In this document: one piece after another, positions 8,174-9,115 of the stretch
Numbering within the stretch: the stretch's first letter is position 1
Layout of the letters: every line of letters starts with the position of its first letter
Source: Escherichia coli
GTDB taxonomy: Bacteria; Pseudomonadota; Gammaproteobacteria; Enterobacterales; Enterobacteriaceae
Length of the DNA: 64,000 bases
NCBI RefSeq assembly: GCF_045037415.1
Contig: NZ_CP173438.1
Strand: one strand, 5' to 3'
Made by a program: the position numbers

Positions 8174-9115
8174 TAATACTTACCCGCAGAAATCATTCTG
8201 CGGGTATTAAGTTGCTTTCTTATAAATTAATACAGATTAATCCTGGTTATTTGCTTTATTTATCACCAGTCATCCGGTATAGTTCTTCATAATCTCTGCA
8301 AAATCATCGTGTTGTAATATTCTCTCATCACTCTCCATCAAATTTTCTTTTTTTCTCCATAATTGGCGCAAAAGTGTTTTTTACACTTTCATTGTTTTAC
8401 CGTTGCTCTGATTAATTGACGCTAAAGTCAGTAAAGTTAATCTCGTCAACACGGCACGCTACTTAAGAAAGCCGTAATAAATAACTGAAAGGAAGGATAT
8501 AGAATATGCGTAAATTAACTGCACTGTTTGTTGCCTCTACCCTGGCTCTTGGCGCGGCTAACCTGGCCCATGCCGCAGACACCACTACTGCAGCACCGGC
8601 TGACGCGAAGCCGATGATGCACCATAAAGGCAAGTTCGGTCCGCATGAGGACATGATGTTCAAAGACCTGAACCTGACCGACGCGCAGAAACAGCAGATC
8701 CGCGAAATCATGAAAGGCCAGCGTGACCAGATGAAACGTCCGCCACTGGAAGAACGCCGCGCAATGCATGACATCATTGCCAGCGATACCTTCGATAAAG
8801 CAAAAGCTGAAGCGCAGATCGCAAAAATGGAAGAACAGCGCAAAGCTAACATGCTGGCGCACATGGAAACCCAGAACAAGATTTACAACATCCTGACGCC
8901 GGAACAGAAAAAGCAATTTAATGCTAATTTTGAGAAGCGTCTGACAGAACGTCCAGCGGCAAAAGGTAAAATGCCTGCAACTGCTGAATAATCTTTCAGC
9001 CAAAAAACGTAAGACCGCCGGTCTTGTCCACTACCTTGCAGTAATGCGGTGGACAGGATCGGCGGTTTTCTTTTCTCTTCTCAAACAGATGCAAAAAAAG
9101 CCTGATCGCCACTAA

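Follow-up and report, generated by a model that had tools for sequence, protein, structure and literature searches.

Introduction

The intergenic DNA upstream of the Escherichia coli spy gene raises the question of where the envelope-stress regulators BaeR and CpxR act on it, and how much of the conserved sequence their sites account for. As a reporter of Bae and Cpx envelope stress, spy is the standard choice, and its promoter is common in biosensors; operator placement in this region therefore has practical value. Regulators of the OmpR/PhoB family have operators built as tandem direct repeats with a period of 10–11 bp, to which dimers bind. The spy promoter of E. coli K-12 has reportedly been described by Raffa and Raivio in 2002, Nishino in 2005 and Yamamoto in 2008.

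Materials and Methods

The window is a stretch of 64,000 nucleotides of E. coli contig NZ_CP173438.1, and positions are given in its numbering; K-12 coordinates were obtained as 1834131 minus the window position. Distances with a sign are counted from the estimated transcription start (+1 = 8450). A Spy protein scan with one genome per species gave 80 loci, and 79 promoters were aligned; the genera sampled were Escherichia, Citrobacter, Salmonella, Klebsiella, Enterobacter, Kosakonia, Raoultella, Cedecea, Buttiauxella, Franconibacter, and others. For CpxR, a log-odds matrix was built from 40 known sites of PMC9600279, with the spy site left out.

Results

The spy open reading frame, encoding a periplasmic chaperone of 161 aa, was located at 8506–8991 on the plus strand, with astE (7169–8176) upstream and ves downstream. 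Positions 8170–8520 are 100% identical to the astE–spy region of K-12 MG1655, so that what has been published on the K-12 promoter can be carried over without change: the two promoters are the same base for base, with the BaeR 18-mer, the TCTNCANAA boxes and GTAAAACAATGAAAG all present in K-12 and no difference between them. Furthermore, a 501-nt query over the astE–spy spacer had matches, annotated as astE and spy, in 5,424 of 5,426 complete E. coli genomes. The 329-nt spacer at 8177–8505 is the known E. coli spy control region, and its promoter was already known. In this context, the earlier note on this DNA, which had recognized the envelope-stress promoter of spy, was correct in both gene and promoter, the latter being K-12-identical and with BaeR- and CpxR-dependent expression. 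The hairpin that follows the astE stop codon (Table 1) was also found in other genera, where its sequence is not conserved, and it bounds the spy control region on the upstream side.

Table 1. Features of the astE–spy spacer, in window coordinates.
Feature	Position	Strand	Basis or remark
Hairpin past the astE stop; probable terminator of the ast operon	8181..8206	+	Perfect 11-bp inverted repeat (I1)
Far-upstream near-palindrome CAGATTAATCCTGG (GGAATATTCC in many other genera)	8233..8246		About -217 to -204
Distal BaeR-type site TTCTTCATAATCTCTGCAAAA	8283..8303	+	21-nt repeat; about -167 to -147
Third, weaker BaeR-like element CTCTCCATCAA	8331..8341	+	Putative role
Proximal BaeR box TTTTTCTCCATAATTGGC (18-mer of Nishino, 2005)	8350..8367	+	Exact consensus match; about -100 to -83
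21-nt direct repeat, proximal copy TTCTCCATAATTGGCGCAAAA	8353..8373	+	Repeat search, family D1
CpxR box GTAAAACAATGAAAG	8386..8400	-	About -64 to -50, between the BaeR box and the -35
Putative -35 hexamer TTGACG (5/6)	8416..8421	+	At least 90% conserved in 79 promoters
Putative -10 hexamer TAATCT (3/6), 16-bp spacer	8438..8443	+	Read from the sequence
Estimated transcription start (±2 nt)	8450	+	7 nt past the -10
5'-terminal leader hairpin ACGGC...GCCGT (8451-8455 with 8471-8475)	8451..8475	+	RNAalifold
Shine-Dalgarno region GGAAGGA	8491..8497	+	Sequence and alignment

With high confidence, we regard the region as a weak sigma-70 promoter that fires only when envelope-stress regulators are bound upstream. 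Phosphorylated BaeR, a regulator of the OmpR/PhoB type, would bind direct-repeat boxes of the TCTNCANAA type at a proximal and a distal site, with centers at about -92 (proximal 18-mer) and -157 (distal repeat), and phosphorylated CpxR would bind GTAAAACAATGAAAG on the minus strand, centered at about -57. Either regulator alone can activate the promoter, presumably through recruitment of RNA polymerase to it from the upstream sites, a mode of action with which the weak -10 agrees. The exact start, the -10 element, the BaeR copy of greatest importance and the recruitment mechanism are parts of this model that we infer; the sequences, their conservation and spacing, the need of spy for baeR and cpxR, and the in vivo presence of BaeR in the region are shown by our analysis or by published data.

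Published data show that spy depends on both regulators. In 5% ethanol, the log2 fold change of spy was -5.76 in a baeR knockout (a drop of about 54-fold) and, likewise under ethanol, -3.04 in a cpxR knockout, an 8-fold drop (PMC7657598). In qPCR assays spy rose 75-fold on overproduction of BaeR and 39-fold on overproduction of CpxR, and deletion of baeR abolished the induction of spy by chlorite. BaeR and CpxR have been reported to act independently on spy, and full induction has been reported to need both of them, in E. coli as well as in Salmonella.

Regarding the proximal BaeR box, the earlier note had claimed that TTTTTCTCCATAATTGGC at 8350–8367 is an exact match to the BaeR consensus, and had named a mismatch on exact comparison as the outcome that would speak against it. 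Against TTTTTCTCCATDATTGGC, the consensus that three papers quote and credit to Nishino (2005), we counted zero mismatches, and the claim stands, position and plus strand included. The 18-mer starts 156 nt 5' of the spy ATG and was the sole match to TTTTTCTCCATDATTGGC in the whole window even when up to three mismatches were allowed, a level at which 0.25 matches are expected by chance; an exact match appeared in 0 of 100 shuffles. Direct binding of purified BaeR to this sequence, by footprint or EMSA, is ascribed by citing papers to Yamamoto (2008).

The origin of the consensus limits what the exact match can mean. In K-12, the BaeR 18-mers of the other two targets are TTTTTCTCCCTTATTGGC upstream of mdtA (locus extract L001, 546–563) and TTTTTCTCCACGATTGGC upstream of acrD (locus extract L002, 608–625), each differing from the spy box at two positions and from the consensus by one mismatch. 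The degenerate letter 'D' of the consensus corresponds to A, T and G in the spy, mdtA and acrD sites, respectively, and at all other consensus positions the spy 18-mer has the majority base. Because the consensus is an alignment of these three sites, the exact match at spy is circular and constitutes no independent evidence. The architecture of the promoters differs as well: read from its sequence, the mdtA box apparently lies near the core promoter, its first base being 71 nt from the start codon, whereas the spy box lies about 90 bp 5' of the start site, is separated from it by the CpxR site, and has a second copy 70 bp farther upstream. A natural variant of the box, TTTTTCTCCACAATTGGC, was observed 156 nt upstream of spy in E. 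coli SCPM-O-B-8794 (locus L004), and it shares the C at position 11 with the acrD box.

The second copy emerged from an independent repeat search, in which 8283–8303 and 8353–8373 were paired as a 21-nt direct repeat (76% identity, spacing 70). The proximal copy comprises the half-sites TCTCCATAA (8354–8362) and GGCGCAAAA, 11 bp apart, of which GGCGCAAAA is degenerate, and the distal copy comprises two exact TCTNCANAA boxes, at 8284–8292 and 8295–8303, as an 11-bp direct repeat. Two half-sites at this distance, as in both copies, are what a dimer of the OmpR/PhoB type would be expected to need; the distal site, TCTTCATAA-tc-TCTGCAAAA, resembles the operators of that family in its direct orientation and 11-bp period, and the proximal copy differs in its degenerate second half-site. 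In the 329-nt spacer, exact TCTNCANAA occurs three times, always on the plus strand (starting at 8284, 8295 and 8354), a number reached in 0 of 20,000 sequences simulated from the first-order composition of that spacer.

The shorter consensus TCTNCANAA is attributed to Yamamoto (2008) by a citing paper. Taken alone, the three spy boxes yield exactly TCT-N-CA-N-AA, a pattern with no exact fit in the cores of mdtA and acrD; TCTNCANAA appears to have been read from the spy sites, and the distal site was therefore probably already known. The repeat at 8283–8303 is probably the direct repeat underlying the consensus of Yamamoto (2008). The third BaeR-like element holds a box, TCTCCATCA (8332–8340), with one mismatch to TCTNCANAA, placed 22 bp 5' of the proximal box. 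A 12-nt repeat from the same search, TAATCTCTGCAA and TAATCTCGTCAA (repeat D2), was taken as a chance match.

Regarding CpxR, the location proposed earlier had to be revised. The earlier note had suggested that GTAAA-containing motifs at about 8440–8490 are CpxR half-sites; a search of that interval found no GTAAA, only GTAAT (8474–8478), and the CpxR matrix gave 6.9 bits at best there (rank 131). On the plus strand, GTAAA was present only at 8431–8435, in the spacer between the -35 and the -10, and at 8510–8514, in spy codons 2–3; its minus-strand form, TTTAC, was present at 8380–8384 and 8396–8400. Within 8440–8490, GTAAA-N5-GTAAA was matched at best with 3 mismatches, and chance alone would be expected to give 6.3 matches of this quality in an intergenic region. 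With up to 2 mismatches, the spacer held 8386–8400 (minus strand) and 8421–8435 (plus strand), that is, 2 matches against 0.88 expected (P = 0.22), and the 64-kb window held 77 against 58 expected. Matches of this quality being common, a search by consensus only was uninformative for CpxR, and only the matrix of known sites discriminated: it gave 8386–8400 a score of 14.6 bits, rank 1 of about 128,000 window positions (training median, 13.4). Among the 41 known CpxR sites in Table S1 of PMC9600279, the spy entry is GTAAAACAATGAAAG, attributed to De Wulf (2002). The CpxR site is about 60 bp upstream of where the earlier note had placed it, and is a published, listed site.

The closest comparison for this box is cpxP, a paralogous gene, whose canonical CpxR box GTAAAACAACGTAAA has 13 of 15 bases in common with that of spy. 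Both boxes have the same orientation, TTTAC...TTTAC towards the gene, but they differ in that the second half-site of spy is degenerate (GAAAG) and in the distance to the TGACGC -35-like element, 16 nt at spy versus 6 nt at cpxP. In addition, the cpxP promoter is without a BaeR box.

ChIP-exo data added a less tidy picture of binding in vivo. BaeR peak_2 of PMC7657598 (K-12 1825823–1825843, window 8288–8308; signal-to-noise 9.25) maps onto the distal repeat copy, and peak_1 (window 8420–8454) lies over the core promoter; neither overlaps the 18-mer, from which they are 42 bp upstream and 53 bp downstream, respectively. We calibrated these positions on other targets of the same study: at mdtA the box falls under the BaeR peak, and at yccA and ppiA the exact boxes fall under CpxR peaks, whereas the CpxR peak at cpxP (4105757–4105803) is 17 nt downstream of the canonical box (4105726–4105740; locus extract L084, 427–441). 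Since the cpxP peak misses its box by 17 nt, the peaks are not readable at base resolution, and the lack of overlap does count, if weakly, against a leading in vivo role for the proximal copy. In the one CpxR ChIP-exo dataset of that study (5% ethanol) spy had no peak, and the gene was filed there as an indirect CpxR target (PMC7657598), which speaks against direct CpxR binding at spy despite the 8-fold drop in the cpxR knockout.

In nearly all 80 loci, the best 18-mer match lies 143–172 nt 5' of the ATG, and in the alignment of 79 sequences its core TTCTYCAYAATTG is highly conserved. At the same aligned position, 57 of 79 species have an exact proximal TCTNCANAA core and 65 have it with at most one mismatch; the distal box is exact in 31 and within one mismatch in 60, and the third box is within one mismatch in 28 of the 79. 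Spacing is fixed, at 70 or 71 bp between the distal and proximal BaeR sites in 78 of 79 species, and at 62 or 63 bp between the proximal box and the -35. The block at 8374–8400, with the CpxR box, is nearly invariant; the least conserved part of the promoter is 8456–8478, which is mostly transcribed leader. Within the nearly invariant block, TACACT (8383–8388) was considered, on the model of acrD and mdtA, as the -10 of a second BaeR-dependent promoter, a role that would be inseparable from the constraint on the CpxR box. A palindrome of E. coli, AAAGTGT-N5-ACACTTT (8371–8389), was dropped, its left arm not being conserved.

A sigma-70 consensus scan of 8100–9150 gave no promoter above threshold, and the core promoter was consequently assigned by conservation and geometry. 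The distance from -35 to -10, start to start, is 22 bp in 79 of 79 promoters; the spacer at 8423–8430 is variable in sequence and constant in length, and GTAAAGTTAATCTCGTCAACACGGC (8431–8455) is conserved. A weak -10 is as expected for an activator-dependent promoter. Downstream, conservation at the DNA level declines from about 8456, and a conserved RNA stem starts at 8451. Among 57 distinct sequences, 95.3% of the cells of this leader stem are paired and 10 cells are changed on both sides, with GC-to-AU at one pair in 7 sequences; such compensatory changes were found in Citrobacter, Franconibacter, and others, around loops of about 5 to 36 nt, and the covariation was matched by 0 of 500 shuffles. 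Taken by itself, the E. coli hairpin has an ordinary predicted stability (z = -0.35). The leader hairpin might stabilize spy mRNA. Just 5' of the Shine-Dalgarno region, a strongly conserved leader block, AATAACTGAAAG (8480–8491), was observed as an imperfect inverted copy of 8386–8399, the stretch of the CpxR box.

Constraint extends upstream to about 8231, some 225 bp before the start site, which exceeds what the two named boxes account for. The far-upstream near-palindrome is fixed at 44 bp before a conserved TATAGT and matches the RcsB box TN(G/A)GAN4TC(T/C)NA (PMC7913699) at 6 of its 8 specified positions, the inner ones; RcsB overproduction induces spy 3.9-fold by qPCR. Speculatively, and as judged from sequence, the near-palindrome could be an RcsB-type site through which RcsB induction acts directly. 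TATAGT (8278–8283) agrees with the -10 consensus at 5 of 6 positions, is conserved in nearly all species and abuts the distal BaeR repeat; no -35-like hexamer was found 16–18 bp from it, and it may mark a second start site or belong to the BaeR site. In the literature, as far as accessible, no description of the near-palindrome, TATAGT or the leader hairpin was found. That the control region is larger than its BaeR and CpxR boxes, with these three elements as further parts conserved at fixed spacing, is a tentative proposal which we regard as possible rather than likely.

Discussion

The current understanding of spy control is unchanged by these data, which correct the position of the CpxR site and expose the circularity of the BaeR consensus. 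What can be debated is the weight of the individual sites. A match of the 18-mer by coincidence in T-rich intergenic DNA, with no regulatory role, draws some force from the facts that the consensus was partly built from this very sequence, so that the exact match alone proves nothing, and that no ChIP-exo peak overlaps it. Such a coincidence is nevertheless effectively refuted, and we give it practically no credence: besides the shuffle control, the position of the 18-mer is kept in 79 aligned promoters while its flanks drift, and near-identical 18-mers precede mdtA and acrD, the two remaining core-regulon targets of BaeR. A second question is which BaeR copy leads. The 18-mer might be only auxiliary and the distal repeat at 8283–8303 the main in vivo operator, possibly cooperating with it over 70 bp; peak_2 is on the distal repeat and off the 18-mer, in a dataset whose mdtA peak does cover the mdtA box (PMC7657598), and the distal site is conserved, keeps a fixed spacing to the proximal copy, and has two exact boxes 11 bp apart where the proximal one has one exact and one degenerate. 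On the other hand, the proximal core is the better conserved (exact in 57/79 versus 31/79 species) and is the copy common to mdtA and acrD, and ChIP-exo peaks can be tens of bases off, as at cpxP, so the two peaks may mark the edges of one complex. We consider an auxiliary role of the proximal copy unlikely, and keep it as a rival reading.

For CpxR, binding at GTAAAACAATGAAAG has to be set against action through GTAAA-like half-sites at 8440–8490, or through GCTAAAGTCAGTAAA (8421–8435) in the core promoter. The latter has 2 mismatches to GTAAA-N5-GTAAA and its GTAAA (8431–8435) is conserved, but its first half-site is not; similarly, 8477–8491 (ATAAATAACTGAAAG) is a conserved, imperfect inverted copy of the CpxR box region, but 8440–8490 is without GTAAA and 8451–8475 acts as an RNA stem. 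GTAAT at 8474–8478 is the end of that stem, and is therefore an RNA-level feature and not a CpxR half-site. Moreover, the candidates of this second reading score 6.9 and 6.5 bits (ranks 131 and 152) versus 14.6 bits at 8386–8400, and sites in or downstream of the core promoter are expected to repress, whereas CpxR activates spy. CpxR action from these downstream positions is thus very improbable, and the box at 8386–8400 is preferred.

A few minor observations concern the surroundings of the gene and the loci collected. Past the spy stop codon, at 9011–9070, there is a long hairpin rich in GC with a T-run behind it, the probable spy terminator. An Rfam scan of the region gave two sub-threshold chance matches only and no known RNA family; one of them, to mir-989 at 9011–9070, was regarded as chance. 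A 503-bp contig of an actinobacterial assembly, labelled Arthrobacter sp. DWC3 (locus L055), carries a spy gene 79% identical to that of E. coli, which is almost certainly contamination. Finally, one Citrobacter MAG held two spy loci (L005 and L029), one of Escherichia type and one of Citrobacter type, which suggests a mixed bin.
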